64,000 nucleotides of DNA from IMG/VR virus record IMGVR_UViG_3300023296_001674. One strand, 5' to 3'. This DNA comes from a virus. Below, piece after piece: positions 27,936 through 51,600 of this stretch (position 1 is its first letter; each line of letters begins with the position of its first letter). Both the position numbers and the translations under genes were made by a program. The notes beneath the pieces were generated by a model. It did no database searches and was not told the origin of the DNA. It saw only the letters and a list, made by a program, of their open reading frames with translations.

Positions 27936-29014
27936 ATCTTAACACCGCATTGAAATGTGCATTTTTTAATAGTGTTGTGTGGAGTTTTCCACGATTCTTC
28001 CAATAATTCACATAATTTTATATAATGAGAATACACGTGGTCAAAATCATATTTGGTTGAATCTAAATTGTCTATTCCTATCACGTTATAAATTTCAGTA
28101 AAATCAACAGGTAATGGTTTATTATCATAAATAAATTCCGAAAGTGTAGCCCCATGCCAACAGCATGGTACTATATGACCCGTTGAATTATAAAACATTT
28201 TATCTATTTTCGTTTTTGATATATTATCATATGATTTACAAATTATATCAATATTGTTTTCTTTTTCATAAGTTTCAAGTTGTTTTAAAATAGTATCGGT
28301 ACTTGTCGAGGTTTTATCATCGTGCACATTTATCAAAAATGTTTCTCTTATCGTTCCTTTATTATCATACTTATATTTATAATCACCGTCGGCTATTTCT
28401 AACGTGTATTCTTCATTTTTCCATTCATACGTAAGTGTGGGTGATCGACTAAATCTATCACTATTAAATGATTTAAAATCAAAAAATCCTAATTTTTCAG
28501 CCATCAATTTTGCTTCTTCGAGTTGATGTTGATTGTGTTTAAATATTATAAATTGCCATCTTGCTTTACCGCCAGAACTTATAAATGCTTCTGCATTTTT
28601 TACTATTTTATCAAAATTGCAATTTCTTCTATACATTTCTAATGTTTCTTGTGTAGAACCATCTAATCCAAATGTACAAACACAACCCAATGAACCCAAT
28701 CTCTCCCACCACGATGTAGATCGTAAACTACCATTTGTTGCTATTCTTATTTTAAGTTTGTCATTTAAAGAACGCATGTATTCTACAATTTCTAAAAAAT
28801 CACTTGATGCAACAGGATCGCTAACATTTCCACAAAACAAAACACTTTTCAAATTTTTTAAAAATTCTACAGGATAAAACTCTTTAAATGCTGAAATAGA
28901 CTGGTCGGTTGACGACCATTTTGATGTATCGGTTCTTGCTCTAAAACACTGAGGGCAATATGCATTACATTTATTAGATAATTCAAAATGAATTTCTTTT
29001 ACTGAATATTCCAT
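27932..29014 (-). CDS. Radical SAM enzyme with C-terminal twitch/SPASM-like domain
   Basis: CNAYCPQC, TNGSLR, FGLDG, FKHNQHQ; C...PCCW...CTFQC. Confidence 0.88.
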   Translation of the reverse strand: MEYSVKEIHFELSNKCNAYCPQCFRARTDTSKWSSTDQSISAFKEFYPVEFLKNLKSVLFCGNVSDPVASSDFLEIVEYMRSLNDKLKIRIATNGSLRSTSWWERLGSLGCVCTFGLDGSTQETLEMYRRNCNFDKIVKNAEAFISSGGKARWQFIIFKHNQHQLEEAKLMAEKLGFFDFKSFNSDRFSRSPTLTYEWKNEEYTLEIADGDYKYKYDNKGTIRETFLINVHDDKTSTSTDTILKQLETYEKENNIDIICKSYDNISKTKIDKMFYNSTGHIVPCCWHGATLSEFIYDNKPLPVDFTEIYNVIGIDNLDSTKYDFDHVYSHYIKLCELLEESWKTPHNTIKKCTFQCGVKI

Positions 29015-29704
29015 TTATTTTCTTCCTATTAACATAAATCTATCATATTTTTCAAGATTTAAATGCCCTTCATATAATATATCATCCATTGGCGACTGCT
29101 GCTTAAATGAATACAAGCTATCGACACAATTAATATGCCCTTTACCATCGTAAAAATTATTCGATTGTAATATCAACAACGCGCCATCGGGTATTTTTTC
29201 AAACCATTTATCATAATTGTCAATATGCTCACAACTGGTGTTTATAACACAATCTGGAATATCATATAAATTACAATCACTACCGTCAGCGCGAATTGTG
29301 CTGTAATCCATGCCATTATAATCTATGTCATGCATATCCATAGTGGAAGCCTTAAACGTCCATTCATCCATTACCCATTTTCTATTAATGGTGTCTGCTA
29401 TGTTAGCACACTGCGTATCTATATCAAAAGAGCGTATTTTATTTATTTTCAATTTATTGGATTCAAACATCATGGCGGCTAATGATCCATACCAACCACC
29501 CACTATATATACAACACCAAGGTCTAAATCTAAACTAATCAATTCATCAATTAGCCACAATTTGCTTTTTATTTGTCCTTGCGTAAATACATCATTAAAG
29601 TCTATATCTGGAAAGTTAATTAATGCTCGGCGCAAATGTGCTATAAGATCACTTTCGTATATTGTTTGTAATCCATTTAATATTATATCGATATCATTAT
29701 ACAT
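29015..29704 (-). CDS. Rossmann-fold SAM methyltransferase-like protein
   Basis: VYIVGGWYG, IRSFDID, VINTSCEH, LQSNN, RFMLIG. Confidence 0.65.
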   Translation of the reverse strand: MYNDIDIILNGLQTIYESDLIAHLRRALINFPDIDFNDVFTQGQIKSKLWLIDELISLDLDLGVVYIVGGWYGSLAAMMFESNKLKINKIRSFDIDTQCANIADTINRKWVMDEWTFKASTMDMHDIDYNGMDYSTIRADGSDCNLYDIPDCVINTSCEHIDNYDKWFEKIPDGALLILQSNNFYDGKGHINCVDSLYSFKQQSPMDDILYEGHLNLEKYDRFMLIGRK

Positions 29705-30602
29705 CTTTCCACAGTCCTAAATCTTTAAGATATTGTTCATCTGCCAAGTGTGGCAGCATTAAACCCAATCTAGATGGATTATTCTGTATCTGTCTTGCAA
29801 ACAGGCTTCCATTGTTATCTAATGTGATAACTGGCATATCCAGTTTATCCCTAAGATATGAACCATATATAGAAAACTCCGCGATGGTAAACTTATGCCA
29901 CGTCGATTTCCACATTTTATCAAACCATTCATAATCAGAAATATGCGTGATATCTAAATCATTAACACATGTTTCATAACAACCGACTCTTGCGCCCATC
30001 ATTGTCCAGAATCCATTGTCTATATCAATGCCTATATTCATCCACGACAGCAACCGATTGTAATTTCCTATCCACACATCAGTTCTAGGGTTTTCAACCA
30101 CCACACCATCGTTTAAGCCCATCCTAACACCCTCTCTGAACCCCGTTCTGAATGCTTGTAGCGGCGTGGTGTTAATATGCGTGGTTGAACTAACTGCATT
30201 CATTTGAAAATAAGGAACAGTCCAACAAAAATCAGTTCCGTTGTTTTTTTCATGACTTTTAATATTTAACATTGTATGCTTGGGCCACAATTTTGCACCA
30301 CCATTACCATACTGCAATCCGTTAACTGAATTTATAGCAGACCAACTATGAACATAATTTGGATTTATATCATCCAACTCTTGACCAAAAAATTCATCAT
30401 CTACTTTGGTGTCACCGTCTATTACGAAAAAATGTTCCGAGTATGCAATTTTCGCTGCTTCTTTGTGTGCTTTATCGATACCTTTTACACCATGCACACG
30501 TTTTGCGTGTTTTACTAATGTTAATAAGTGCTCATAATTTTCATCAGCATTTGGTTCATCATATGATATGAATATCACATCAAATTCATAAGCGTTTGTC
30601 AT
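29697..30602 (-). CDS. GT-A-fold glycosyltransferase-like protein (paralog 1)
   Basis: DVIFISYDEPNA, GVKG..AH, VIDGD (DxD), YGNGGAKLW, FRTGFREG. Confidence 0.65.
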   Translation of the reverse strand: MTNAYEFDVIFISYDEPNADENYEHLLTLVKHAKRVHGVKGIDKAHKEAAKIAYSEHFFVIDGDTKVDDEFFGQELDDINPNYVHSWSAINSVNGLQYGNGGAKLWPKHTMLNIKSHEKNNGTDFCWTVPYFQMNAVSSTTHINTTPLQAFRTGFREGVRMGLNDGVVVENPRTDVWIGNYNRLLSWMNIGIDIDNGFWTMMGARVGCYETCVNDLDITHISDYEWFDKMWKSTWHKFTIAEFSIYGSYLRDKLDMPVITLDNNGSLFARQIQNNPSRLGLMLPHLADEQYLKDLGLWKDV

Positions 30603-31435
30603 ATTTTATACATTACCTTTTTTATAAATTCACTTTGTTCTGCGGTAAACAGTGCCGTTTCGATATCAAACATATCAAGCATTTCTTCACCACATGATTG
30701 TATATTGCTCATAATATCATTGTGGTTAAGTTGTAAATCATAATATTCGCGACACACGCTAAAATCATTTATTATATTTAATTCTTCAACTTCTCGTTCA
30801 ATCAACTTATTTGAGTTACACGAACCGTGCATTACGCCCATTCTAGCACCCGCTATAGCATAATCACCAAAATCAACATCCATGCCAACACTTGTCCATA
30901 TTTTAAGACGCGCTAATGTTTCTTCATTTTTTTGATTATCAATGACTGCACTAGATAATTTGGTACATTCTCTAAATCCACTTTTCCATGCATTAAACGG
31001 AGTTGTATTGAAATGGGTAGTGCTGGCTATTTCTTTATGTGATTTAAACCCACTAGATGCAGCCGCAGCACTCGTGCAAAAATCAACAGAATATTCTTTT
31101 ATGTGCTCTACGTGATCAGTTGGAAATAATTTAACACCACCATATCCGTATTGCAATCCATTTACTGGATTATTGCAGCCCCATACATGAACGCGTCTAT
31201 CATTTTGATGAAAATCGACAACATTTTCAAAATCAAAATTGTTATCAACTACATTGTCTGCGTCTACACAGAAAAAATGCGACGTAGATACTTGTTTTGC
31301 TGCTTCGATGTGGGCGTTAGGAATTCCTTTAACACCATCTATGCGAATGGCATATGGAATAAGATCAGTTAATTTTTCCCAATTCTCATCGGCATTTAAC
31401 TCATCATAACTAATAAAAACAACGTCAAAATGCAT
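30599..31435 (-). CDS. GT-A-fold glycosyltransferase-like protein (paralog 2)
   Basis: DVVFISYDE, CVDAD, YGYGGVKLF, WKSGFREC. Confidence 0.65.
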   Translation of the reverse strand: MHFDVVFISYDELNADENWEKLTDLIPYAIRIDGVKGIPNAHIEAAKQVSTSHFFCVDADNVVDNNFDFENVVDFHQNDRRVHVWGCNNPVNGLQYGYGGVKLFPTDHVEHIKEYSVDFCTSAAAASSGFKSHKEIASTTHFNTTPFNAWKSGFRECTKLSSAVIDNQKNEETLARLKIWTSVGMDVDFGDYAIAGARMGVMHGSCNSNKLIEREVEELNIINDFSVCREYYDLQLNHNDIMSNIQSCGEEMLDMFDIETALFTAEQSEFIKKVMYKI

Positions 31436-31496
31436 ATATATTCTCCATTCAAATCAATAATCGATATTATACTATAATACAAAAATAATGTATATA

Positions 31497-31592
31497 TTAA
31501 TATACGTATGGGTCTTGTTTTCTCAATCGTTTAAGTTTTTGCTTTCGCTTCCACCATGATTTTATTTTTTTAATTAATTTGTATATAAACAT
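31497..31592 (-). CDS. 31-aa basic micro-protein (not in ORF track)
   Basis: MFIYKLIKKIKSWWKRKQKLKRLRKQDPYVY*; TAATG overlap with the upstream radical SAM stop. Confidence 0.65.
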   Translation of the reverse strand: MFIYKLIKKIKSWWKRKQKLKRLRKQDPYVY

Positions 31593-32902
31593 TAAATATA
31601 ATCCTTTATATATTCATATAATTCTGGAAAAACTGTTTCAAATTTTTCATCACGTATTTCATCGAGTTTGGTTGTAATTTTCCAAAATTCTTTAAGTACG
31701 TGTGAATTATCTTCTTCAAACATAAATGCAATATATGGTTCTATTATAAATTTCACCTGTTGTTTCATTGACGGGCCAGAATAAACTTCGACCCATTTAT
31801 AAAGTTCATTATAACGATCACGAATACGATTTTTAGCAGCAATGGGCAAAACTTGAACTGTCATATAATGTGGGCCTTTAAGCAAATGCGGACTTGGTAA
31901 ATGACGCAATCTCTTAAAACCCGTTTCTATTTGCCATTGTATCATATCTGCAAAATGTAGAAAATTATACAAACTAACGGTAGTTGCAAATGTGCCACCG
32001 ATGTTTCCAGTTGTAGTATTTTCTAAAGCCAATAAATTTTTATGAACTACATCCCATTTGCATGGATGGCGTAAATATTCTGCAACTGCGCCCATTCCAT
32101 CAATGCTACAACCAACACTAACTTGTTGAAATTTCTCCCACATACGAATCAATCGTTCTGGTAATTTTGCCATATTGGTGTTATATTCTAGATGAATATT
32201 TTTAGCCACATCTATTTCTATACACATTTCTAAAAGATTCATATGTTCTTGAATAATAGTTGGTTCACCGCCAGTAAAATATAATCTTTTTATATGTGGC
32301 AAATTTTTCATTAATTCAGTCATAACTGCGGAACTTTCATACCAATCATATGTATCATCAACAGTATTCCATTTACCACGTGCATCTTTTTCTAAAAATG
32401 TAATACCTATTTTATCATTTCCGAAATTACTTTTACCATGTAACTCTACCCAATCATCATACCATTGTGTCGAATCAGCAGGTCCACAACTTCTACATTT
32501 AAGATTGCATTTATTTCCAAATCGTAAATCATAATATGCTATAGGGCGTTCTGAGGCTTGTATGGTGCCATCTTCAGTAGTTATGGCGTTAGCCTCGTCT
32601 TTTGTAATTAACCCCATTTGGTTGGCGTGCTGACGTTTTGAATTAGCACCAGATGCTTCTTCATCCCAACATAATTTACATGCTTCATGTTTTTCATCAT
32701 TTAACATACTTTTTCTAATATCTTTAGCAATAGATGCATTACGCGCTTCTTCTACGGTATGGGTATTTCCGTTAAATATAGTTCCATCATCTTTTTTTAG
32801 TATTGCTTGGTCACCATATATGCACTGACAACATACCCGCATATCGCCATTCGCTTTTAGTGAAACATGATCCCATGGTATAGGGCAATAAGTGTTAGAC
32901 AT
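31592..32902 (-). CDS. Radical SAM enzyme with N-terminal twitch-like domain (start revised)
   Basis: CPIPW...GDMRVCC...CKLCW; CNLKCRSC; FTGGEP; YNTN; SIDG. Confidence 0.88.
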   Translation of the reverse strand: MSNTYCPIPWDHVSLKANGDMRVCCQCIYGDQAILKKDDGTIFNGNTHTVEEARNASIAKDIRKSMLNDEKHEACKLCWDEEASGANSKRQHANQMGLITKDEANAITTEDGTIQASERPIAYYDLRFGNKCNLKCRSCGPADSTQWYDDWVELHGKSNFGNDKIGITFLEKDARGKWNTVDDTYDWYESSAVMTELMKNLPHIKRLYFTGGEPTIIQEHMNLLEMCIEIDVAKNIHLEYNTNMAKLPERLIRMWEKFQQVSVGCSIDGMGAVAEYLRHPCKWDVVHKNLLALENTTTGNIGGTFATTVSLYNFLHFADMIQWQIETGFKRLRHLPSPHLLKGPHYMTVQVLPIAAKNRIRDRYNELYKWVEVYSGPSMKQQVKFIIEPYIAFMFEEDNSHVLKEFWKITTKLDEIRDEKFETVFPELYEYIKDYI

Positions 32903-32906
32903 ATTT

Positions 32907-33857
32907 TTAATCCTTTGATTTACTTGCCATGATATCGAAGTTACAATGACAATAATTTTTATCACATATCACTTGTTCTGTTGGTAGGTTTAAATTTTCG
33001 TCATTGATATGACCTAAGCCACCACCAACTTTGCACCAGCCGCGATATATAGACCCGTCCATATCGATAACTATTTGTTCTGTACCAGCACCACATTTCC
33101 AACCAACCCAACTATTTTCACCTTGAGATATAAATCTATGTGGTGCCCAATTTTCCATTGTGTTTCCGTCAGAATCGATTAATGACATTGCTCCACGATA
33201 ACTTTCAAATGTTTTATCTCTAACGATCAACGCGCCGGTTAATGCGAACTGTCTATTTAATATATCTTGTTGATAGTCGGTGTATTCATATAACTCATCG
33301 CCAAAATCCACAATAAGTGGTTGCATTGCCATACTTATATTTTTAATGTCTTTCACTTTTAACGCCACGTCATAACAATCGTCAAAATGTTCAGGTGACA
33401 TCATAATATTAGCGTGAACTCTGATATCATCACTTAGATATTCAATAAATTCTAAAAAGGTGTCCACTTTTGAAAATTCAGGATGATAGCTAGTGCATAC
33501 GTGATTTATGTATGGCTTCAATTCGCTCCAATAACGCATAGTTCTTGACCCGTTCGTTATAAGTCCCACTTTAGCATTCGATTCGCTTAGAAACTTACAC
33601 AACTCCTTAAAATGCTTCCAAAGGGTTACTTCACCACCAGTGAATTCAAAATATACAATTTTAGGTGCATAATGTTCTATAACGCGGGTGCAAAATGATT
33701 TAACGTCATCAACGTCATACCAACCTACAGTGCCATCATGCAGTCCGGTGGGACAATACGAACATGCAAAATTACATGTGTTACCCATGCACCAATTAAC
33801 TACCACATAATCACCGTGTTTTTTATTTTCGTGTTCTAATTTTACATAATCTATCAT
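32907..33857 (-). CDS. Radical SAM enzyme with C-terminal SPASM/twitch-like domain
   Basis: CNFACSYC, TGGEVT, TNGSR, SYHPEF; GWKCGAG...WC...CDKNYCHC. Confidence 0.88.
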   Translation of the reverse strand: MIDYVKLEHENKKHGDYVVVNWCMGNTCNFACSYCPTGLHDGTVGWYDVDDVKSFCTRVIEHYAPKIVYFEFTGGEVTLWKHFKELCKFLSESNAKVGLITNGSRTMRYWSELKPYINHVCTSYHPEFSKVDTFLEFIEYLSDDIRVHANIMMSPEHFDDCYDVALKVKDIKNISMAMQPLIVDFGDELYEYTDYQQDILNRQFALTGALIVRDKTFESYRGAMSLIDSDGNTMENWAPHRFISQGENSWVGWKCGAGTEQIVIDMDGSIYRGWCKVGGGLGHINDENLNLPTEQVICDKNYCHCNFDIMASKSKD

Positions 33858-34885
33858 ATGTTTTTATCCTTAAATTTGAATTTTGCATTGCGACCAGTAG
33901 CGGCAGTTTCTGAAACAATTAATCCCATTTTGGCGGGATTCTCAATAGTGGATTTAAAAAATTTACTTTGTTGTTTTCCAAGATTGACAATATCTAAACC
34001 AATTTCGTTACGAATATCGTCAACAAGTCTATTATAGTCTTTCTTAAACGCCTCTTGATCTTCTATGATTTTAACCCATTTTTCACGCCATGTTTTATCA
34101 AACCATTCATAATCGGCAATTTGACTAATATCAAAATCCGTAACGTTAGTTAGGTAGCAACCAAGTCTAGCGCCATATATTGCGTATATTCCATTTTTTA
34201 CATCCGCGCCCACCGACATCCATATTTTTAATCTTTTTAAATTTCCATGCCATACAGTGGAAGTCATATCTTCTACTTGTTTTCCTTCATGTAAACTAAG
34301 TTTTACGCCCTCACGAAAACCGACACGAAATGCTTGAAATGGTGTAGTGTTATTATATGAAACAGAATACCAATCATTCATTTGAAAATATGGCAACTTC
34401 CAACAAAATTCAATAGCTTCATCGTCATCGGTATGCTCATGAGTATTCATATGTAAAACTAATCCTTTGGGCCACAATTTTATTCCACCATTGCCGTAAA
34501 TTAATCCATTTATATGATTTTTTCCTGCCCAACTATAAACATAATTGGGATTATATGTTATACTTTGATTAAAAAAATCCTCATCTATTTTATTATCACC
34601 ATCAATAGTAATAAAATTCATAGTATCTGATTGTCTTGCGGCATGTTTGTGTGCTTCATCGAATCCTTTGATTCCATGTATGCGTTTTGCCCATGGTATT
34701 TTACTAATTAAATTTGACCAATTTTCTTCTGCATTAGGTTCGTCATAACTTATATAAAATACATCAAAATCATTAGTTGAGGCATCTTTAATAATTTCAT
34801 CATTTGGTGTAATCGCAGGATATAAATTTTTTAATTCATCATCACGATTTTTCCATTTTTGTTGTTCTTTGGTTAACTTAGTCAT
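33854..34885 (-). CDS. GT-A-fold glycosyltransferase-like protein (paralog 3)
   Basis: DVFYISYDEPNA, TIDGD, YGNGGIKLW, FRVGFREG. Confidence 0.65.
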   Translation of the reverse strand: MTKLTKEQQKWKNRDDELKNLYPAITPNDEIIKDASTNDFDVFYISYDEPNAEENWSNLISKIPWAKRIHGIKGFDEAHKHAARQSDTMNFITIDGDNKIDEDFFNQSITYNPNYVYSWAGKNHINGLIYGNGGIKLWPKGLVLHMNTHEHTDDDEAIEFCWKLPYFQMNDWYSVSYNNTTPFQAFRVGFREGVKLSLHEGKQVEDMTSTVWHGNLKRLKIWMSVGADVKNGIYAIYGARLGCYLTNVTDFDISQIADYEWFDKTWREKWVKIIEDQEAFKKDYNRLVDDIRNEIGLDIVNLGKQQSKFFKSTIENPAKMGLIVSETAATGRNAKFKFKDKNI

Positions 34886-35651
34886 TATTATCAGTCCTAA
34901 TAAATTTCATTATTTTATTGTGTGTCGATATAATCATACTATTGTGTGGCAACATTAATTCAGTATATATTGTTCTATTATCAGTAAAATTAAATGTAAA
35001 CGAATAATATAATATTGATTTATCTATGCTATCCACTACAAAAAACTGATATTCAGTGCCGTGTGTAAACATATGATGATTGGTGTCGCGTTCAACCACT
35101 GTAGATATAGTTAATGATGACCCAATGTATGATATATCAATAATACTCTCATTGTTTATTTCACTTACTATATAATCCCCAATCAATGGAATCATCATAT
35201 AAAAATTTACATCATCGCCATATAACTGAATTAATTCCATTACTAATAACGAGTTATCGTCGTTGATTTTATAGTTTAACATATTTTTTGTGCCATTAAT
35301 GAATTCTGTTATCAATTCATCAACAATCACCAGTCCGCATTTTAATGTATCATCATCGTCTTGAATTTGTTGTTTTCTTGGTACAATACTACTTATGGTT
35401 TTTTCTTTGAAATGATAATACACATAGAATGTTTTTTTGATATTATATATTCCATCTTCATCATATAAAACGAATTTATTTTTTTTGATATTAGCGTTTC
35501 GTTTCCATAAATTGTAAAGTTTTATTACTTCGGGTGCTTTTGATGGCACAATCATGTACAATTCACACTGAAGCAAATAGTCGCACGGTTCCATACTTAT
35601 TTCATGTATAATTCTATTCTCGTCGGTATATACATATATTAAATCACTCAT
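34878..35651 (-). CDS. Hypothetical protein (start revised)
   Basis: Operonic ORF overlapping both neighbours; GGAG SD. Confidence 0.65.
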   Translation of the reverse strand: MSDLIYVYTDENRIIHEISMEPCDYLLQCELYMIVPSKAPEVIKLYNLWKRNANIKKNKFVLYDEDGIYNIKKTFYVYYHFKEKTISSIVPRKQQIQDDDDTLKCGLVIVDELITEFINGTKNMLNYKINDDNSLLVMELIQLYGDDVNFYMMIPLIGDYIVSEINNESIIDISYIGSSLTISTVVERDTNHHMFTHGTEYQFFVVDSIDKSILYYSFTFNFTDNRTIYTELMLPHNSMIISTHNKIMKFIRTDNND

Positions 35652-36507
35652 AATTATTCTCCAATATATCAATCATTCCATCTTTCAAAAACTTTTTGAC
35701 ATGATAATGAAATATTCCAGTTTGTCGTAATGTACCAATTTTAATACCAAGAGAATCATTAAATTCGTCAAATGATATATCGACACATCTCGTCCAATCG
35801 CCATCAAAACTTTTGCTTGGTAGAACCCAATTCATATTTTGTAATTTCATATGTGTAAAATAAGGAAAAGACACTTCGTTGAATATTGCATCGTTTTTCA
35901 TGCCAATCAATTTCAACGAAAGACCAAACGCCACATCAGTACTGAATACTTTAGGGCGTTTTTTATATAAATGTTTTTTGACATAATCGTCCCAATTTTC
36001 GCATATATCTTTCATTGTATCGAACAGTTCTTTGTTATCTTCGTGTTTTTTAAAATAGAAAAATGCATTATACACATTCGGTAGTTTATTTTTTATAAAT
36101 TCTTCACGATAAATTGTATGTGGCGGCACAATTTCACTTTTGTAATTTTTAATGGTTGATGTGAACCAAGTGTTTCTAAGTGACATATAATCCCACCAAT
36201 GACTAATATCTGTTAAAAATAGCATATCACTATCTAACATAACTGTTTCATCATATGGAGTATAATCATATAAGTCTACAATATTATGCAATTTCCAATC
36301 TGCATCTTTGGCGCGATCATTGTCCATTATTATAATTTGGTCAAATGCTTTGATATAGTGATTTGGTATATATTCAATATCAGTGACAATAGACAATTTA
36401 TTGACTCCGCTTTGGGTATTTTTTATACTCAACGCCAACGCATAAGCAAGTCTCAAATAATCAACATCTGGTGTATTTTGAACTATACATATATATCCTT
36501 TATTCAT
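35644..36507 (-). CDS. GT8-like glycosyltransferase
   Basis: YLRLAYALALSIK, TPYDETVMLDSDML, NVYNAFFYF, STDVAF, HYH. Confidence 0.75.
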   Translation of the reverse strand: MNKGYICIVQNTPDVDYLRLAYALALSIKNTQSGVNKLSIVTDIEYIPNHYIKAFDQIIIMDNDRAKDADWKLHNIVDLYDYTPYDETVMLDSDMLFLTDISHWWDYMSLRNTWFTSTIKNYKSEIVPPHTIYREEFIKNKLPNVYNAFFYFKKHEDNKELFDTMKDICENWDDYVKKHLYKKRPKVFSTDVAFGLSLKLIGMKNDAIFNEVSFPYFTHMKLQNMNWVLPSKSFDGDWTRCVDISFDEFNDSLGIKIGTLRQTGIFHYHVKKFLKDGMIDILENNYE

Positions 36508-37415
36508 GAATATATCTCCACGAATGTATCATAATGATGTGTCATACTTACTTTATTCATACAATGCAATGATATATTCTCAACATTGAAAAGTTGTTTT
36601 GGATTCTTCCATTGATGTGTGTGTATCATTAATTTTATTTGTTGTTTATCCACCCTATATACAACATCATTATTAGTTGAGAGAACAAATTTAAATGGTA
36701 TTTCCCATTCAGTTGATGGGATATGATTTCCATTAGCGATATATAATGCAATGCTGAATGAATAATCATTTCTATATGAATTATCACTAACTTGATATAA
36801 TCGTTGAAAATAAAAATAATTTTCTTTAATATGATTAACCACATCAAAATAATTTTTACTAAACTCACTTCTGTCAAAATATACAACCGTAGCCCAATAC
36901 ATCGGAATAGAAAAACTTCCCATTTTTTCTGTTGGATGAAAGTGTGTGTTTTTAGAGTGCGCTTTGTTAATAATAGGAATAATTATTCTATTCATCATAA
37001 TCGATGAATTCGAACCCCAAAGTTTGTCAAGATTTTTATCTTGAAAAATAAAATCCACATCGATCATGATTGTTTCATCATATATAGAATCTGTATATGC
37101 ATTAGAGCGCGAGTGATTAATCCACGTATTTGTTCCGTAGTATATTTCACCATCAGTCGTTTTTCTATAATTTTTTATTTTCTGCTTTACGTCATCAACT
37201 TTTACAAGATCGAATAACTCATTGAGCAATGCAGTTTCATTATCATTCAATGACGCCAATGATTCACTATTGGTAACTACCATTGCGTTAAATTTTGATA
37301 ATTGATATCTACCAGTTAATGCGCTACTTATTGCCAGTTTTAAATAGTTTATAATTTCATTATTATATGCGTAATATAAAAATCCGCATGTTTTTTCATT
37401 AGATTTCAACATCAT
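36504..37415 (-). CDS. GT8-like glycosyltransferase
   Basis: AYNNEIINY, YDETIMIDVDF, WATVVYF, YRNDYSFSIA, HCMNK. Confidence 0.72.
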   Translation of the reverse strand: MMLKSNEKTCGFLYYAYNNEIINYLKLAISSALTGRYQLSKFNAMVVTNSESLASLNDNETALLNELFDLVKVDDVKQKIKNYRKTTDGEIYYGTNTWINHSRSNAYTDSIYDETIMIDVDFIFQDKNLDKLWGSNSSIMMNRIIIPIINKAHSKNTHFHPTEKMGSFSIPMYWATVVYFDRSEFSKNYFDVVNHIKENYFYFQRLYQVSDNSYRNDYSFSIALYIANGNHIPSTEWEIPFKFVLSTNNDVVYRVDKQQIKLMIHTHQWKNPKQLFNVENISLHCMNKVSMTHHYDTFVEIYS

Positions 37416-37773
37416 CTTCCAATTCATGCATTTTTGTTAATGTTGGCACATTTCTTGATTTTTTTAATCGTGCTAAACTCATGGCATACTTATTCAATGA
37501 TTCGGTATAACATGAACGAACTTCTTTTTTGAATTCTACTAAATTTTCTATTTTAATAGGCATGTTATGTATATCTAAAATAAATGCTGATATTTTACCT
37601 TCGTCAATGTACATAGTTAAATCAAAGAATAGAGCAGAACCCAATAAAAAATATCCACCGCTATGTGGATATATTAAATCGCCCTCGAATACTTCCATTA
37701 TTTTTTCTTTTTGATTCTCAAATATTGCCCTAAAATTAGCTTGATCTGACGCTTCTTTATATAATGTTTCCAT
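37399..37773 (-). CDS. Hypothetical protein heading the GT/radical SAM operon
   Basis: 124 aa; GGYF, ILDIHNMPIKI; AAGGA SD. Confidence 0.7.
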   Translation of the reverse strand: METLYKEASDQANFRAIFENQKEKIMEVFEGDLIYPHSGGYFLLGSALFFDLTMYIDEGKISAFILDIHNMPIKIENLVEFKKEVRSCYTESLNKYAMSLARLKKSRNVPTLTKMHELEDDVEI

Positions 37774-37838: not shown

Positions 37839-38750
37839 TTAATTTCCATTTGATAAACTTATATTTGTAGTATATGTAGGGGAATCTATATCAAAAGATA
37901 ATGCATATTTACTTTCAACTATTGAGCTAGTAAATGTCCCGTCAACTATGTCTGGTGGATTTGTATGCCCATCTAAAAAATTGGATTGTATTTTAATTTC
38001 TAATCCATTGCCGCCATTTGGTCCTTCTATTCCAACGCGTTGACCTAAAATAGTCCACACGCTTCCAGTAGAACCACCGGTACTACCATATGGTCCACTT
38101 AATGGTGTTATTTGTGATCTCACCAATTCTAACGAGCCGGTTAATGCATAATATTCATCACGACCAAATATTAAATCATTGCCATCAACAACTGAATCCC
38201 ATGCAGCATTTTGTGTATTAACCGCGCCGCCAGTTCTTGTAGTTGCTATACGAAATGTGCTTCCTGTATTAAAGAAATATCGTGCATGATCAACGCTTGT
38301 GAATTTTATTGTAAACACATGCTGTATATATGTACTCCAATCCAAAACTCTTGAATCAGTCAATACCGAACTTGTCGACGGTAAATTAAATGTTGGATCA
38401 GTAAGGAACCGATTTGTAGTAATATCAAACAAATTTTGTGAAGAATTTAATTTTAGAAAGAATGAAGCAACGTCGCCATCTTCCATATCTGCAACTGATG
38501 GCAAAACATCCATCAATGTAGTTCCTTGGTGATCAGCGCAATCCTCGATTGCGTTCCTCAAATTAATCCACGCTTCATTAGTCAATCCACCTCCAGGTAT
38601 TATATCTGGTATGTTACCATCAATTAATACATTAGTGGAATTTCCACCATATCCATAATCACCATTGCCAATACCAAATATTAAATTTAATTCATTAATT
38701 AAATTATTATAATCAGATGCTTCGATTTCACCACCAGTAGAATAAACCAT
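37839..38750 (-). CDS. Virion structural protein (paralog family A)
   Basis: DYN...G.G..GYG N-motif, HQGTTL, F.S.DHARYFFNTG, R.GG...QN..W. Confidence 0.75.
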   Translation of the reverse strand: MVYSTGGEIEASDYNNLINELNLIFGIGNGDYGYGGNSTNVLIDGNIPDIIPGGGLTNEAWINLRNAIEDCADHQGTTLMDVLPSVADMEDGDVASFFLKLNSSQNLFDITTNRFLTDPTFNLPSTSSVLTDSRVLDWSTYIQHVFTIKFTSVDHARYFFNTGSTFRIATTRTGGAVNTQNAAWDSVVDGNDLIFGRDEYYALTGSLELVRSQITPLSGPYGSTGGSTGSVWTILGQRVGIEGPNGGNGLEIKIQSNFLDGHTNPPDIVDGTFTSSIVESKYALSFDIDSPTYTTNISLSNGN

Positions 38751-38776
38751 TATTAATCCTCTATATTCTTACCATG

Positions 38777-38784
38777 TATTTATA
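38777..38784 (-). promoter_or_regulatory. Late promoter TATAAATA
   Basis: Overlaps upstream stop codon, ~27 nt upstream of ATG 38750. Confidence 0.5.
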
Positions 38785-39769
38785 GTTCTACGATATTTAC
38801 AAATACAGCAGAGGTTATGTTAAATATGCCTATTGATCGTTTTTGTGATATTGCACTTGTAAGTATGCCATCAACGCCATCAGCCAAACCACCAACAGGA
38901 TTTCCAGGCAGTCCTAATGCATCTTGCGTTGGTCCTGTAAAACCATCGATAAATTCACATTTGATTCTAATAATAGAACCATTTCCGCCATTAATTCCTG
39001 CCGCATCGTCACGACGGGCGCTAATAACCCATTTATTTTTTTCCGCATCAATAGCAGCAGGATTGGCATAAGTAGTTGTGGTTGCGGCATATACCGTTGA
39101 TTTTATAACATACGATCCGGTTAAGCTAAAATAATCGGTGCCAGCAAATACAATAGGCGAACTACCACTTAACAAATTAGTCCATGATTGATTTTGTGCA
39201 CTGGCTGCACCACCCGTTCTCGATCCAGTTATTCGAAATTCACCACCAGTATTAAAAAAGAATCTAGCATGATCAGAATCATCAAACGTGGCAGTAAACT
39301 CGTGTGTTATTCCAGCACCAGTTCCCCATGCGGTTGACCGAACACTTGATAGTATGGTAGTAGTTGAGAAATTTGAAATATCAGAATTCAATTTATTTGT
39401 TGTTAGTTCAGTGACATTATTTGGCGGCGTTCCATTTAAACTTTCAAATAACGGTGCTGCGTTTGTGCCAAATCCAACTTCGTCGCCATCTTCTAAATTA
39501 GTAAGGAGCGGCAATGTGTTGGGTAGTGTTGTATCTTGGTGTAATGCACAATCATTAAATGCATTAGTTAAATCTAACCACTCTTCATTATTCACTATTT
39601 CACCTAATGCAAAGCTTGGTAAATCAACAGCAGCCGAAACAACATTTGCTGAATTTCCACCATAACCAGAATCGCCAGTTCCAGTACCATATATTGTATT
39701 GATATCATCTATCAAATCACTATAATTCATCGCAGTTATGGGTTTTTCTGACTCGAAATCTGTAACCAT
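38780..39769 (-). CDS. Virion structural protein (paralog family A)
   Basis: Same N- and C-motifs (GTGTGDSGYGG, HEFTATFDDSDHARFFFNTGG). Confidence 0.75.
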   Translation of the reverse strand: MVTDFESEKPITAMNYSDLIDDINTIYGTGTGDSGYGGNSANVVSAAVDLPSFALGEIVNNEEWLDLTNAFNDCALHQDTTLPNTLPLLTNLEDGDEVGFGTNAAPLFESLNGTPPNNVTELTTNKLNSDISNFSTTTILSSVRSTAWGTGAGITHEFTATFDDSDHARFFFNTGGEFRITGSRTGGAASAQNQSWTNLLSGSSPIVFAGTDYFSLTGSYVIKSTVYAATTTTYANPAAIDAEKNKWVISARRDDAAGINGGNGSIIRIKCEFIDGFTGPTQDALGLPGNPVGGLADGVDGILTSAISQKRSIGIFNITSAVFVNIVEL

Positions 39770-39787
39770 TATATTATTCCTCTTATT

Positions 39788-41878
39788 TTAAACACCAGCA
39801 GTTATTTCTACTATAACATCATATACCGGTAACGGCTTTACAAATATATCAGTGGAATGACTGCCAGATACTGTACTAACAAATGTTCCATCAACTTCAT
39901 CGGTTGCACCCGTATGTTGATCTAGATATTGCATTTGTATTGTCACTATATTACCATTTCCGCCATTTGGTCCACCAATTGCATCAGTTTTTGCTGATAT
40001 AGTCCATTTAATAGGATTTGGTGTGTCGTATGGTCCACCTGAAATATCTTCAATTGCGTAAAATTCTACATATGATGTAGTCAATGCAAAATAATCAGAA
40101 CTTACAAATGGTGGTGGCACCGAAGTTAATAATGCATCCCATGCTGTATTTTGGGTGGTTGCAGAGCCACCACTTCTGTTAGCACTGAAACGTATATCGC
40201 TACCAGTGTTAAAATAAGCACGTGCTTCATCGTCATCGGTGAATGTTAAACTAAATTCATGAAACAGCGCAGCACTCCATGCGGTAGTTCTAGTGCTAGT
40301 ATCAATTACTTCAATAGAAAAACCTTCACCGGAGCTATTTGCGGAATTTGCTAATAATACATCATCATTTCTTCTTAAATCTTGCTCTAATGCAGGCAAT
40401 AAATCATCACCCGGTTCATTATCTTTATCGTGAGGAATTAATTCAGTGAAAAATGACACAATATCATTAACATCATCTATGCTTGATCCGAGTGGTAATG
40501 CACGTCGTGTTATTGCCACAAATCCTAAATCAGCTAATGTGGTTCCAGTTCCCTCTGCCAATGTAAGTACGGGATTTGCGTTGTCTTCTTTGACTGATAC
40601 GTTGTCTACACTTGAAGTGCCAACAGTTGTATTAAATACTTTAAGGTAGGTTGTTGTGCTTTCAGCGTAAAAAACCGCCGTTGTACTAACGCTGCCATTT
40701 GAACTATCTATTAGATCACTACCCGTAAAGAAAGTTGCTAAATGATAACCCCACACTCCCCCCACATGCTCTATTACAATACGATATTTTGTACCAATAA
40801 CAGTAGGAAAATCTGTGTAAGCGCGATTTGTATCAGTCACCTTGGTCATATCCAAATAACCACCAGCATTCCATGATATAACGTTACCTGATCCAGTATC
40901 GGTTGACCCTTCAGCCCACCCAGTCAGGTCGCTATCAAACGACCCATTAGTAACTAATTCTGAACCAAGCGCCTCGCCTTCCATTATAATTTTTATTTTA
41001 GTGTCGCCGTCATCTATAGCAGTTAATTCCGCTCCGGTTTGTGCGGTTATATCTGTTATTGCGTCATCATGATCTGATGTACGAGGGAAAGTCCCTGCGG
41101 TAAATCCTAAATCAACTAACGACGTACCAGAACCCTCTAATAATACTATATCAACCACTGTGCTACTCATTACCAATTCATTGCTTCCAGTTTCACTAAA
41201 ATTCATATTTGGTATGGCAGCAGCATTGAGATCAACCAATGCATCGCTTGCGGTAGATGTTCTCATAAATGTGCCTGCGATAAATCCTAAATCCGCCAGT
41301 GCAGTGCCAGAGCCTTCAGCCAATACTAAATCAACCGACGATGAACCAGTGGATGTCATATTTAACCTTCCGCCAATATCTGACACCGTAACATTAGGAA
41401 TAGCTTCGGCAGTTATGTCTGTTACTGCATTAGAAACTGTTGCTATTCTATCATAAGTGTCAGCGGTAAATCCAAATGGAGTAACGCCTGTTCCTGCTAA
41501 TACCAAATCATTCGTAACTGACGTAAGTTCTAGATAACTACCAACATCGAGTGCAGTTAGCCCAGGAATACTTTCATTATCAATATCTATAACTGCTTGT
41601 GCCAAATCGGCAATAGACAATGATGAAACTCCAGCAACAAATCCTAAATCAACCAGTGCGGTTCCAGTGCCTTCTGCTAATGTTATAGCAGTTAAATTTG
41701 ACGTTAGTGTTATTATATCAGTATTACTAATAGATGCTGTTACATTAGCAACACTGGCAGTGTTTATATCATCAGTTGCATCCTGCATTGATGTTCCCGT
41801 CATAGTTATAGAATCGCCATTTATTACTATGGTTTCACTTGTGGTATATTTGGGGGTATTAACGTATGCAATAGCCAT
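39788..41878 (-). CDS. Virion structural protein: repeat C-halves + CBM-like insert + family A C-domain (no family A N-motif)
   Basis: LAEGxGTALxDLGF repeats; ELVTNGSFD...DNVSVKE; HEFSLTFTDDDEARAYFNTG. Confidence 0.75.
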   Translation of the reverse strand: MAIAYVNTPKYTTSETIVINGDSITMTGTSMQDATDDINTASVANVTASISNTDIITLTSNLTAITLAEGTGTALVDLGFVAGVSSLSIADLAQAVIDIDNESIPGLTALDVGSYLELTSVTNDLVLAGTGVTPFGFTADTYDRIATVSNAVTDITAEAIPNVTVSDIGGRLNMTSTGSSSVDLVLAEGSGTALADLGFIAGTFMRTSTASDALVDLNAAAIPNMNFSETGSNELVMSSTVVDIVLLEGSGTSLVDLGFTAGTFPRTSDHDDAITDITAQTGAELTAIDDGDTKIKIIMEGEALGSELVTNGSFDSDLTGWAEGSTDTGSGNVISWNAGGYLDMTKVTDTNRAYTDFPTVIGTKYRIVIEHVGGVWGYHLATFFTGSDLIDSSNGSVSTTAVFYAESTTTYLKVFNTTVGTSSVDNVSVKEDNANPVLTLAEGTGTTLADLGFVAITRRALPLGSSIDDVNDIVSFFTELIPHDKDNEPGDDLLPALEQDLRRNDDVLLANSANSSGEGFSIEVIDTSTRTTAWSAALFHEFSLTFTDDDEARAYFNTGSDIRFSANRSGGSATTQNTAWDALLTSVPPPFVSSDYFALTTSYVEFYAIEDISGGPYDTPNPIKWTISAKTDAIGGPNGGNGNIVTIQMQYLDQHTGATDEVDGTFVSTVSGSHSTDIFVKPLPVYDVIVEITAGV

Positions 41879-43707
41879 TATAATGTCACCGTTGTTGCGA
41901 ATGTTGGGGCAGTAATTGTTAAGAACGTGCCATCTACATTTCTCATTGATATATCAGAAGTTAGCGTTCCATCTACGCTGTCTGGACCGCCGCCAGTACC
42001 AACGTGATCGTCATTATATTGCGATCTAAATGTTAAAATATTTCCTTTGCCACCACGCCCAGTGCCATCAGTTACCGTGTTGGTTTTAGCCGCGATATCC
42101 CAATCATTTGCTGAATATACACCAGTTCCGACAAAATTGGCTACACTAACAAAAGATGTCGTTAAGGCAAAATAGTCATCGCCGTCATATAGAACTGTTC
42201 CAGCAGTGGATAATAATGTTGTCCAATTTGTGTTTTGATTGGTTGCAGAGCCACCTGATCGAGAACCCGCGAGTCTTATTTGCCCACCAGCATTAAAGAA
42301 TGCTCTCGCATGATCTTGGTCTGTAAATGTAACAGTAAATTCATGACTTACGGTTGAAACCCACGCCGATCCTCTTGATTGACTTATCGAGTTAGGGTCA
42401 ACCGTAATAGCCGTACTTGCAACAGAGTCTACTAATGTTGGGTCGAGTTCTAGTTGATTTAAATTCGTAACCAATGTATCAAAATATACTTCAGCGGTCC
42501 ACGGCTTTGGGTCTTGTATTATAGAATCTAAAGGCAATGTCGGTGATAATGTAATACCTTGATGTTGTTCCAAATCTGATATTATATCTTTCCATGCATC
42601 CAACGTTACTTCACTCATACATACATCTACCGTTGGACTTGTGACGGCAGTTTGACCATACCCAGTTGCACCGGTACCCAATGCATATATCAAATTTATA
42701 TCGGTCACAAATGTAGATGTATCTACCTTAGTTCTACCGGTTGCGGATGTACCCGATCCATTTACAAATGTTGCACAATTTACATGTATGATAAAAACTT
42801 GCTGAACGGTTGAAGTACCACCATCATCTGCTTCTGTATTAAAACTGTAAACGGTATCTGTGGTTATCGAAGCAACCGTTACCGTTCCAGTTATATCACC
42901 TGATACTGCACCCAACGAAAGCCCTGTGGGCAACGTACCTAATAGCGTATACCCAGGTGTTATAGGTGCTTCAGCATCATCAACTGCCGAGATTGAAAAC
43001 CCAACAGCAGCCTCGCCTTCGCCTACAGTTCCTACAAAATCATTAAACGCCGATGCAACATTAACGGTTGGTAGGTGTAGAACTACATCTGTTCCGTTTA
43101 TTGTCAATGTTTCACCAAATGTGGTAGGATTGATAGTAGAACCGGTCTCAGTTATTGTACCAAGGGTAAAATTCATTTGAACCCCATTTATAAACATATC
43201 ATTATTTGTGGTATATGTTATAGGGAGACCGCCAATTGATCCTGTTTCTGAAACCGTGCCGGTTGCAAAATTCACAGGAACCGTATTGACTACGATACCA
43301 TCATTTGTGATATATTCAGGATCGGGTGGTACTGTACCACCCGTCAATGTTATACCACCAGTGGTAAATGTTACGGTGTCGGCATTAACAATTATTGTAT
43401 CACCTGGAAAATAGGTAGCTGCTAAAACAGTACCTTTTTGCCTCACAGATAACAATGTGCCTTGATGTCTTGCGCAGTCTTCATACGCATTTCTCAAATC
43501 CAGCCAATCACGCAATGTGATCACATCACCTAATATTTTACTAGGCAATTCCGTTATACTATTAATCCCTGGCTCCACTGATCCCGGACCTGTCGCCAAT
43601 CCACCATAACCCGATGTTCCGGTTCCTGTGCCATATGTTACATTAATGTTAGTGATTAGTGTATTATAATCAGCAAAACTTATTAATCCAGTTTGTTCGT
43701 ATGCCAT
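41878..43707 (-). CDS. Virion structural protein: family A N-motif + repeat N-halves + Ig-like domain + second family A unit
   Basis: Two GTG..GYG/HQG motifs; GTLPTGLSL...GDITGT (He_PIG-like); one C-domain. Confidence 0.75.
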   Translation of the reverse strand: MAYEQTGLISFADYNTLITNINVTYGTGTGTSGYGGLATGPGSVEPGINSITELPSKILGDVITLRDWLDLRNAYEDCARHQGTLLSVRQKGTVLAATYFPGDTIIVNADTVTFTTGGITLTGGTVPPDPEYITNDGIVVNTVPVNFATGTVSETGSIGGLPITYTTNNDMFINGVQMNFTLGTITETGSTINPTTFGETLTINGTDVVLHLPTVNVASAFNDFVGTVGEGEAAVGFSISAVDDAEAPITPGYTLLGTLPTGLSLGAVSGDITGTVTVASITTDTVYSFNTEADDGGTSTVQQVFIIHVNCATFVNGSGTSATGRTKVDTSTFVTDINLIYALGTGATGYGQTAVTSPTVDVCMSEVTLDAWKDIISDLEQHQGITLSPTLPLDSIIQDPKPWTAEVYFDTLVTNLNQLELDPTLVDSVASTAITVDPNSISQSRGSAWVSTVSHEFTVTFTDQDHARAFFNAGGQIRLAGSRSGGSATNQNTNWTTLLSTAGTVLYDGDDYFALTTSFVSVANFVGTGVYSANDWDIAAKTNTVTDGTGRGGKGNILTFRSQYNDDHVGTGGGPDSVDGTLTSDISMRNVDGTFLTITAPTFATTVTL

Positions 43708-43772: not shown

Positions 43773-43799
43773 AATAAAAAACGCCACCGAAGTGACGTT
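43773..43799 (-). terminator. Intrinsic terminator with C(UUCG)G tetraloop
   Basis: AACGTCAC-TTCG-GTGGCGTT-TTTTATT. Confidence 0.85.
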
Positions 43800-48600: not shown

Positions 48601-51600
48601 ATGCCACTAATAATGATCGCATCATTAGAAATAGGTGCAAACCAAGGAATACCAGCAAGTGTGGGATTAGTCATTGAACGTGCAATTTGTGCCACCGATT
48701 GATTTCGAGTTTTAACATTAGGAACAGTTTCACTATTTTTAACCCAGAAATAATATGATGTAACATCAAGTTTTGTTGTTCTATCTGTTATAGTCTTTTT
48801 TGTATATGGTGGATTTTCTGAAACATCAGCCATAAATGCGTCACCAGATGGTTTATATTCAAAACTTTCTTCTGGTTGATCTGCATTTTCTTCAACATAA
48901 TTTGCCCATTCCAATGGTGGAACTGGTGATTTAACCCAATCATAAACATCTATGGATTTGCCATTAATAATTGTGCCCCAGTTATTACGACGCTGTCTAT
49001 TAGAACCTTGATCATATATTGTATATTCAACCGCAGATACATCCCACCATGCTTTTCCAACATATGAATCATTCCATGACATTGTTGGATCGATTTGAAA
49101 TACCGTTTCGTCACCATCGGTGTATTTAGCTGGATCATATTCGATGCGATATGATAAATCCCCAGTAACTTGTGATGGAAATAATCCTTTAGCTGGATCG
49201 AATACACTCATTCTTGCATCGGTTATATCTTCTATATTATTATATAATATAGATTGTGAAAATAAATCAACATCTATTCTCGATGATTGTGTTCTTTCGA
49301 CATTGTCATATTCTGCTATGTCCCAACTTGCGCCATTATATACATAAACTTCCCATAATGGAACTATTTCCGAAATAGTGGTTCGAGTGTCAACATATAC
49401 ATAATCATCTGCAACGAATGTTATACTACCAAGAACGGCATTTATTGTAGCAGCATCACGTGCGGCAATATCAACAAATCTCGATTCTGTAAATACACCC
49501 AAAGTTCCATGGTGAACACCAATATTGGTATCATTTGATATAGTGTTTTGTATCACAAAACTATCACTTGATAATGCGACGAATGTTCCAGCAGTTAACC
49601 CAATTTCATTTAATACATTTTCATATGTACCAGCAACAATCCCAAGATCGGCAAATGCGGTGTCACCACCATCATCTGCAACAACCAATGATGTTGTAGT
49701 ATTCGATATTCTCAATGCAGCGCCTTCATTTACTGCAACGATATCTGTTATAAGTGCAGCAGTAATATCAGTCACTGCGTCATCAATGGTGGATACCAGA
49801 TCATATGTTAAAACACTTAATCCTAAATCTGCCAATGCGGTTCCGCCGCCTTCGGCTAATATAAATGCACTTTCACCTTCGATTACTAAACCACCAGAAC
49901 GTTTATATGCAGTAATTCCAGATACTGAAGCCAAGTTAATATCTATTATCGCAGAATCTACATCAGTTCCAGTAGAAAGTGTGATTATTGTTGCGTCAAT
50001 ATCTATTGTTTGACTATTAGTATATGTGGCATTGGCGGTTCCTAGCGCTGTGGCGGTTCCAGTTGAAAGTGTAACAGGTGTGCCACTAATACTTATTATA
50101 TGTCCATTCGTGTATGTAGCCCCAACGTCACCAATAACAGATGCATCTGAGCCAACTGTAAGAACTATGTCGGCAGTTTCTATATCAACTAATGTTATTG
50201 CGTCACCGGAGTTGTATGCACTAACATGTGGAACCAACGCGTCATTGATTAATGCTATTATTTCATCCACGGTGTCGCATATTATATCGATGCGTTGTCC
50301 GTTGATGGTTATATACATTCCCTCTATTAACTCACCCAACGATGTAAATGTCGTGCCTGTAACTTCAGTTGGTACAGTTATAACATATGAACCATTAATA
50401 TCAGGGCTAGTTCCTTCATCACTATCAATCATAACTATTTGACTGGTTATAAATCCATGATCTGCCGACGATAACACTAATGTTCCGCCATTATCCGATG
50501 GTAACACTGGTAAACTAAAGGTTAATCCAGTATCAGTATAACGATATACCATAAAACTGTTATTATATCTTACCATAGGATCGTCGTCATTTATATCATT
50601 TGGGTCATTAATATCATAATAATTGCTTATATCATCAACCCAAATTAAATCACCAAACGCTAAATCTATTGCGGTTAATGTTATTTTTTGCGTATCGAAT
50701 ATTTCATCGCGTTCTTCTATTGTATTCACGTGATAAGTTACTTCATCATCTAACACATAACCACCAACAGAAACGTCTGTTCTAAATAAATATGAAGAAT
50801 TTTTAGATCGAATTTCTGCTGTTGGTGTTCTATAAGGAAAACGAGCAAGACCATCAAACGGAGGTCTAGTTATCCAACGATCATCATCGGTAGTCATTTC
50901 TATTATATCATCAAATTTACTATCAGGATTTTCCGCAGTTGTAAAATCTATGAAATTAATCATTTGTGGTTCTGCACGCCATTCTTCTTCGAATAACGAG
51001 AAACCTATTTGTGCAAAATCTTGAACAGCACCATATTCTCCCAATCGCAACGCCCATTCTTCAAATATGGTAATATCACCAGAATCATCGTCGCTATTAC
51101 GGAATAATTTATCAATAACTAATCTAGTTCCTTTTTCGCGAATGAAACCTTGATAGAATTGGAATTGGGTGTCACCACTCATTCCCAAACCAGTGAGATA
51201 ATCACGCTCTTGGAATCCTATCAAACGCCTTGCGGATGATTCTAATACAGTTCTATCTACGCTATTTTCAATAGAAAAATACTTTCTAATATCATTTACT
51301 GATTTTTCAAAGTTTGGTGTTAGCGTATTTCCAGTTATTATATATCCAGGAGCATCATATTTACCATCCCATCCACCCGCACGCGTAGTGAATACTTTAA
51401 GCCTATATTGGCGAAGGTTGAGTAATGGATTGTATATCAAATCATTAAATATAGTGCTATTACTAAATGTTATTATGTGTTCATATTCGGTGACAAACAA
51501 TCTAGCAGAAAATATATATCTACCATTAATTGGAACCACTAATATGGTATTATCATCATCGCGTGATATAAATGTATCTTCTGGTTGAATCACTCTACCA

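Follow-up and report, generated by a model that had tools for sequence, protein, structure and literature searches.

Two adjacent genes with complementary halves of one module

We studied two adjacent genes in a 64,000-nucleotide stretch of viral DNA (IMG/VR record IMGVR_UViG_3300023296_001674; the whole stretch is called the window here), which belongs to a 570-kb phage contig (ENA ERZ27315719). Both genes, with all of their parts, lie on the minus strand. Sequence comparison, together with a tree for the first, indicates that the open reading frame (ORF) of 609 amino acids (aa) (P0001, 41878..43707) is the 5' part of one gene, gene A, joined to the 3' part of another, gene B, and that the 696-aa ORF (P0002, 39788..41878) is the rest of gene A with a new start. 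Both belong to a protein family, family A, whose parts (an N-motif, a middle helix, and a jelly-roll) were recognized here by profile. Inserted among these parts are the two halves, the N-half and the C-half, of a repeated module.

The 609-aa ORF opens with a family-A N-motif of two helices (aa 1 to 86, 43450..43707) that lacks its own middle helix and jelly-roll. It is followed by four N-halves: N-half 1 (aa 87 to 118, 43354..43449), N-half 2 (aa 119 to 151, 43255..43353), N-half 3 (aa 152 to 184, 43156..43254), and N-half 4 (aa 185 to 212, 43072..43155), all found by profile. A He_PIG immunoglobulin (Ig)-like domain (aa 213 to 310, 42778..43071) begins what we call the gene-B cassette, and a complete family-A unit of the gene-B type, including the stop codon (aa 311 to 609, 41878..42777), ends it. 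A preliminary description, made from the letters of the window alone, had placed an Ig-like domain after the N-halves, and Pfam recognizes it as He_PIG above the cutoff (E value, 1e-5).

The 696-aa ORF begins with one whole module (aa 1 to 84, 41627..41878; profile), which may once have been the innermost domain of gene A. Three uninterrupted orphan C-halves follow, also found by profile: a (aa 92 to 142, 41453..41605), b (aa 149 to 204, 41267..41434), and c (aa 212 to 264, 41087..41245), whose expected partners are N-halves 4, 3, and 2, respectively. Orphan C-half d, with N-half 1 as its expected partner, is in two pieces (aa 271 to 301 and 435 to 457, 40508..41068) that flank a beta-rich insert of about 130 aa (aa 303 to 433, 40580..40972). 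This insert has many homologues and no Pfam match or PDB sequence match, and we call it carbohydrate-binding module (CBM)-like from a motif only. The ORF ends with a family-A middle region and jelly-roll (aa 460 to 696, 39788..40501), without an N-motif, orthologous to the C-terminal part of an unsplit protein, P0005.

To count the halves, we used hidden Markov models (HMMs) of the N-half and the C-half built from other proteins only, with P0001 and P0002 left out. The N-half HMM matched P0001 at aa 89 to 117, 132 to 151, 164 to 184, and 188 to 210 (28, 16, 11, and 9 bits; best of 400 shuffles, 4.1 bits), with N-half 3 reaching 19 bits in a relative, P0013, and the C-half HMM found no C-half in P0001. 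In P0002, the whole module was recovered as an N-half at aa 7 to 29 and a C-half at aa 33 to 84, and C-halves a, b, and c scored 41, 63, and 65 bits (best shuffle, 9.7 bits), with the fourth matched in two pieces. Because the gaps between the C-halves of P0002 are only 4 to 7 residues and the N-halves of P0001 recur every 33 residues or so, missed partner halves cannot hide between them. Free N-halves occurred within the window in P0001 only. These results uphold the earlier count of exactly four N-halves and no C-half in the 609-aa ORF, although N-halves 2 to 4 are weaker than intact ones. For the 696-aa ORF, the profiles likewise confirm a whole module plus four C-halves, except that the fourth is split by the insert of about 130 aa, which had been missed.

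The three uninterrupted orphan C-halves scored like intact ones (P value = 0.97). When subtypes of the halves were matched against 30 known pairs, the nested register came 3rd of 24, whereas the parallel order came 23rd, a weak signal.

Misassembly at the junctions is unlikely. Identical copies of P0001 and P0002 were found with the same neighbors on five contigs from three assembly sources (ENA, JGI, and Logan), and the left junction recurs in an independent phage; we give the reading of the locus as an assembly artifact a negligible probability. Locus searches with either ORF in IMG/VR or JGI gave no match.

Nesting of the module within single chains

For this module, nesting is usual, and elsewhere it was found nested inside one chain. 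The fibre-like proteins P0006 to P0010 have the order N N C C within one chain, and at the equivalent site of orthologous giant proteins, the depth of the inner nest is one in locus L087, two in the window (a self-nested module in the 3446-aa protein, found by profile at window positions 49580-50345), and three in locus L086. The added modules in these giant proteins sit at the midpoint of the older module. The giant proteins of L087, the window, and L086 form a natural series of length variation by nesting. In P0002, the orphan C-halves are preceded by short linkers that resemble those before the outer C-halves of single-chain nests.

The module also occurs whole or in tandem in P0011, P0012, P0041, P0065, and P0160. 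It appears to be mobile among virion proteins, since its carriers include the 1269-aa baseplate wedge of this phage (aa 569 to 641), P0012, L088 to L096, and L128 (sheath-like), P0160 to P0162, P0011, and P0065; among them are tail sheaths, proteins of 209 aa, and a tandem array of seven copies.

Nesting is found in flagellins, hook-associated proteins, and phage tail sheath inserts, within one chain. The module has a sequence pattern similar to that of Flagellin-IN-like outer domains and sheath inserts and occurs in sheath-like proteins, but six module-bearing segments gave no Pfam match to Flagellin_IN (PF07196) at E values up to 10. No solved relative of the module was found by sequence. 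Its neighbors in a language-model search included a cluster with Flagellin_IN on 22% of members, its structural neighbors in the Atlas were sheath proteins and flagellins with template modeling (TM) scores of 0.38 to 0.45, which are leads only, and a match to FlgL was weak (E value, 0.03). An Atlas search with the block of N-halves gave no usable result.

Origin of the split

A syntenic phage, L108, has a single gene at this position. Upstream of the two ORFs in the window is a 348-aa gene followed by a terminator-like hairpin (43780..43799, minus strand); L108 carries a 348-aa orthologue (74% identity) and the same terminator and spacer, followed by one plain, unsplit family-A gene and then by orthologues of the 329- and 303-aa genes that lie beyond the two ORFs here. 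The single gene is the best L108 match both to the first N-motif of P0001, by a small margin, and to the jelly-roll of P0002. The second line of evidence is P0005, which in one chain has the N-motif, one whole module at the same site, and the distinctive middle region of P0002. The best matches to aa 460 to 530 of P0002 were P0005 and P0018 (scores of 90 and 114, versus ≤58 for others). The two ORFs are thus colinear with one unsplit homologue, as seen in the single gene of L108 and in the architecture of P0005. At the locus of P0018 (L106), a fragment of a family-A C-terminal part adjoins an unrelated bacterial-looking ORF on the opposite strand, and this contig is probably chimeric.

The cassette has a recognizable source. 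From aa 213 to its stop codon, P0001 corresponds to the end of a separate gene, gene B, which consists of the last of its He_PIG domains and a family-A unit. The cassette N-motif grouped with that of stand-alone gene B (support, 100/94), and the cassette jelly-roll was 68 to 77% identical to that of P0024. The metagenome that yielded L108 carries gene B on a different contig, with unrelated genes around it. Because the cassette matches gene B, which stands alone elsewhere, the DNA that cut gene A is the 3' part of this gene. In L107 (59-1919), gene B is present as two overlapping frames (163 and 462 aa), which may reflect a frameshift or a sequencing error.

The ends of the cassette have no target-site duplication and no inverted repeats, and both transposition and inversion switching were rejected as its origin on these grounds. 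The GC content of third codon positions (GC3) did not distinguish the cassette from its surroundings.

Two results count against this history. Searches of proteins and loci found no five-deep unsplit orthologue, so the exact ancestor is a reconstruction, and the tree did not resolve the first N-motif of P0001 as the sister of P0005. These same two results speak for another origin, in which two family-A genes were truncated independently, or the halves were amplified separately after a split, with the equal counts arising by chance or by later matching; so does the resemblance of the innermost module, and not only the outermost, to the single module of P0005. However, L108 has a single gene at this position, the missing parts of the two ORFs are exactly complementary, and the orthologous giant proteins nest by balanced insertion at the midpoint, and we regard independent truncation as exceedingly improbable. 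That gene A was cut by a gene-B cassette is well supported by the sequence comparisons. The proposal in the preliminary description of an ancestor cut by an Ig and paralog cassette is therefore sustained by L108, P0005, the three-deep nest of L086, and gene B, although the exact five-deep ancestor was not seen; an unsplit homologue, of the kind that it said should be sought, is seen in the single gene of L108 and, with a module at the same site, in P0005.

Age of the split and a relative with one gene

A relative of P0001, P0013 (626 aa, 58% identity; locus from ENA ERZ24794644 and Logan ERR13319468), keeps the first N-motif and the four N-halves, joined to the Ig domain at the same junction and followed by the gene-B unit, but the C-half gene is missing from its locus. 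Its jelly-roll is chimeric: before aa 480 to 484, it is 74% identical to P0001, whereas after this point, it is 62% identical to P0002 and 42% identical to P0001 (P value = 0.0008). Since the jelly-roll is a chimera of P0001 and P0002, P0013 descends from the two-gene state. The missing gene is, to judge from this breakpoint, the result of a deletion of about 2.1 kb between paralogous domains (repeat D3) of two jelly-roll genes, and the stretch absent from the P0013 phage corresponds approximately to positions 40190..42270 of the window. Because P0013 arose from the two-gene state, the split is older than the divergence of the two phages.

That divergence is considerable. Neighboring orthologues are 54 to 74% identical as proteins, which corresponds to about 1 or more substitutions per four-fold site (rate calibrated on L108), and a neutral block at such a divergence is expected to have a closed frame and about 18% identity. 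The four N-halves of P0001 and P0013 are 44, 61, 57, and 82% identical. Because the N-halves retain this identity and the C-halves score at the consensus level, both sets have been under structural selection since the split. The comparison thus points to an old split, with both sets of halves selected, and such long selection favors their pairing in trans.

We weighed these values against the reading of the locus as a decaying relic, in which the halves are passive linkers kept open by the folded domains downstream of them and P0013 represents the next step of loss. The C-half block is indeed deleted in P0013, and both blocks lie upstream of intact domains, which would be enough by themselves to select against stop codons. 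Open frames, however, account neither for an N-half identity of about 60% nor for C-halves that still match the consensus when neutral sites have changed about once each, and we consider a relic very unlikely.

Coupling of the two reading frames

The two ORFs share a TAATG stop-start overlap, and a Shine-Dalgarno-like motif, GGTGA (41886..41890, minus strand), lies 7 nucleotides before the start of the 696-aa ORF, inside the end of the 609-aa ORF. The TAATG coupling noticed earlier is present but not special to this pair, since the genes for the 1269- and 3446-aa proteins have it as well. The motif and the overlap would suit equimolar synthesis of the two proteins.

These features also bear on whether the two ORFs could yield one chain of about 1,300 aa, by a −1 frameshift close to the end of the 609-aa ORF or by RNA or protein splicing, in which the cassette would be the innermost insert and the domains would fold in cis. 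In favor of such a product, the 696-aa ORF lies in the −1 frame, and 25 codons of open frame precede its ATG (window positions 41879-41953), which is true of 3% of such windows in the operon. Against it, the overlap has no slippery heptamer and no strong downstream structure, Rfam gave no match, and no intein family of Pfam or NCBIfam was found at the gene ends, which instead match gene B and the module. In addition, the Shine-Dalgarno-like motif is placed 7 nucleotides before the ATG, and the 609-aa ORF ends where stand-alone P0024 ends. Programmed −1 frameshifting by a canonical signal was rejected for want of a heptamer and a strong downstream structure, and a single chain by any of these routes is very improbable. 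No endonuclease was found as the splitting element, the insert consisting of the He_PIG domain and the gene-B family-A unit.

A model of two chains completing each other

The model that we favor begins with a stalk in gene A, grown between the N-motif and the middle helix by insertion of a module of about 85 aa into its own midpoint five times, to give the order N1 N2 N3 N4 (N5 C5) C4 C3 C2 C1. A piece of gene B, a paralogue elsewhere in the genome, comprising its last Ig domain, its family-A unit, and its stop codon, would then have landed at the tip, between N4 and N5, and the rest of gene A would have restarted through the TAATG coupling. Because outgoing and returning strands would pair side by side in a nested stalk, a break at the tip would leave every interface intact. 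The 609-aa chain would supply the N-motif helices and the four outgoing halves, and the 696-aa chain would bring the middle helix and jelly-roll together with the returning halves. The cotranslated chains would close on each other in antiparallel fashion, like a zipper, to make four domains of two chains each and to restore the helical base of family A. The result would be a Y-shaped 1:1 heterodimer, with the whole module of the 696-aa chain at one tip, the Ig domain and second family-A unit of the 609-aa chain at the other, and the CBM-like domain near the base of the appendage. We suggest that it serves as an accessory appendage for surface binding or cross-bracing and is not essential. The sequences show the anatomy, the source of the cassette, how old the split is, and the selection on the halves, whereas the five-deep ancestor, the pairing in trans, the virion position, and the role are steps that we infer.

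On the evidence of the sequences, P0001 and P0002 probably form a 1:1 heterodimer with four intermolecular domains and a branch made of the Ig and family-A units. It seems slightly better than an even chance that the pair works as a two-chain zipper in the full sense, that is, with four nested modules and a helical base each contributed half by one gene and half by the other, without an intein, added tails, or a chaperone, and with the branch point kept under long selection. Structure prediction did not bear on the matter: a complex of P0002 aa 1 to 462 with P0001 aa 85 to 214 scored 0.12 and 0.01, against a mark of 0.32, and counts neither way, and an AlphaFold2 model of P0001 on a two-row alignment was uninformative (predicted local distance difference test [pLDDT], 33).

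Several observations weigh against pairing in trans. The orphan N-halves scored below intact ones (median of about 15 versus 24 bits, P value = 0.015), and serial C-halves were found in no protein but P0002 in the protein collections searched. On the six contigs from ENA and Logan that have the locus of P0013, no C-half gene is present and the genes of 327 and 301 aa follow directly, which means that the C-half partner gene is dispensable and, if the deletion is old, that constraint on the N-halves persists with no partner. Only one phage is known to have the arrangement; the DNA read here is 64 kb of its 570-kb genome, and the relative P0013 is known from its proteins. The assembly system of the earlier description would thus be neither obligatory nor widespread.

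The strongest alternative that these observations raise accepts the same split history but supposes that the halves have since gone separate ways, with the four hairpin-type N-halves serving as a spacer, alone or with further copies of their own chain, the C-halves folding on one another or, by domain swapping, on the single N-half, and the 4:4 correspondence being a fossil. The persistence of the N-halves of P0013 at about 60% identity (82% for N-half 4) without an adjacent C-half gene would fit this, as would the greater drift of orphan than of intact N-halves from their consensus. The orphan C-halves, however, have not drifted from the consensus of partnered halves, and P0013 is a derived chimera whose deletion may be recent. 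Furthermore, no other protein with serial unpartnered halves was found among 160 proteins and more than 120 loci, an imperfect count, as divergent sheath modules were detected by their C-half only. We therefore consider this alternative unlikely, and we retain the heterodimer as the favored reading of the locus.

Gene order and family A

The two ORFs lie in the baseplate and tail block of a giant myophage of the PA5oct/RaK2-like kind. The block contains a baseplate hub lysozyme, a baseplate wedge (1269 aa), and the 3446-aa virion protein, followed by genes for proteins of 200, 348, 609, 696, 329, and 303 aa, with family A represented in the last four. By sequence comparison, the 329- and 303-aa genes (37839..39769, minus strand) are two plain family-A paralogues. 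A TAATAAATA motif downstream of the hairpin that follows the 348-aa gene (about 43747-43739, minus strand) may be late-promoter-like. Right after the family-A genes come glycosyltransferase-like and radical SAM genes (window positions 26113-37773), in an order kept in the P0013 relative.

A structural model of family A was confident (pLDDT, 90.5) and consisted of a helical N-terminal part and a beta-sandwich. Foldseek found no match to it in the PDB, its top Z score in VIA was 6.8, to generic jelly-rolls, and its matches in BFVD and the Atlas were to uncharacterized phage proteins only. The absence of a fold match in the PDB does not establish a new fold for family A. Homologues are present in RsoM2USA (RsoM2USA_417) and PA5oct (PQE65_gp360), with the same N-motif, jelly-roll, and position after a giant baseplate-associated gene. 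The PA5oct gene is syntenic, and its record marks the protein as detected in the virion by electrospray ionization tandem mass spectrometry (ESI-MS/MS); by analogy with this homologue, P0001 and P0002 may also be located in the virion.

Most family-A ORFs in the fetched loci (143 of 155) have one N-motif and one jelly-roll. Two N-motifs were found among the loci only in the 609-aa ORF of this phage, and they are also present in P0013. Insertions of other kinds occur in the family: proteins of L062 (10662) and of L063 and L065 (10951) have unrelated inserts of 70 to 180 aa between the N-motif and the middle helix, the same site as here, and the jelly-roll of P0035 is interrupted by an insert of about 245 aa.

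Comparison with known systems and implications

The nearest precedent is phage Aeh1, in which nrdA is split by mobE into NrdA-a and NrdA-b, which work as one protein without splicing (PMC3045599). In both cases, inserted DNA has divided a phage gene into two ORFs; joint action of the two products was shown biochemically for Aeh1 and is likely here. In Aeh1, a free-standing endonuclease gene was inserted and new terminal tails assemble the enzyme. Here, the inserted piece comes from a structural paralogue and continues the frame of the first piece, there are no tails and no nuclease, and four serial split domains and a split helical base would have to hold the chains together. Phage and environmental genomes also contain fractured genes with split inteins, in which inserted DNA lies between two adjacent pieces of a gene (PMC2677866); unlike these, the present pair has no intein or homing endonuclease, and covalent joining is not expected. 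In the donor-strand complementation of chaperone-usher pili, a domain is completed by a segment of another chain (PMC6615685). There, each subunit gives one strand, the polymer is head to tail, and a chaperone is needed, whereas here one partner chain would give about a third of each of four domains in an antiparallel zipper, and the heterodimer would be closed. The split units are also not Ig domains by Pfam, and the sole He_PIG domain lies outside them. We found no description of the module, the family, or the arrangement in the literature, in a collection that was incomplete.

The implications are bounded by the fact that they concern one phage, an accessory part, and uncharacterized families; the P0013 phage, with its second gene lost, is a ready natural control. 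If the model is true, genes in pieces would include not only enzymes split by selfish nucleases but also structural proteins split by a paralogue, and the pair would be a naturally occurring heterodimer, tunable in length, with four split domains that are specific for their register. It would also illustrate a simple route to a branched virion fibre, in which cutting a nested stalk at its tip gives two free ends for new domains.

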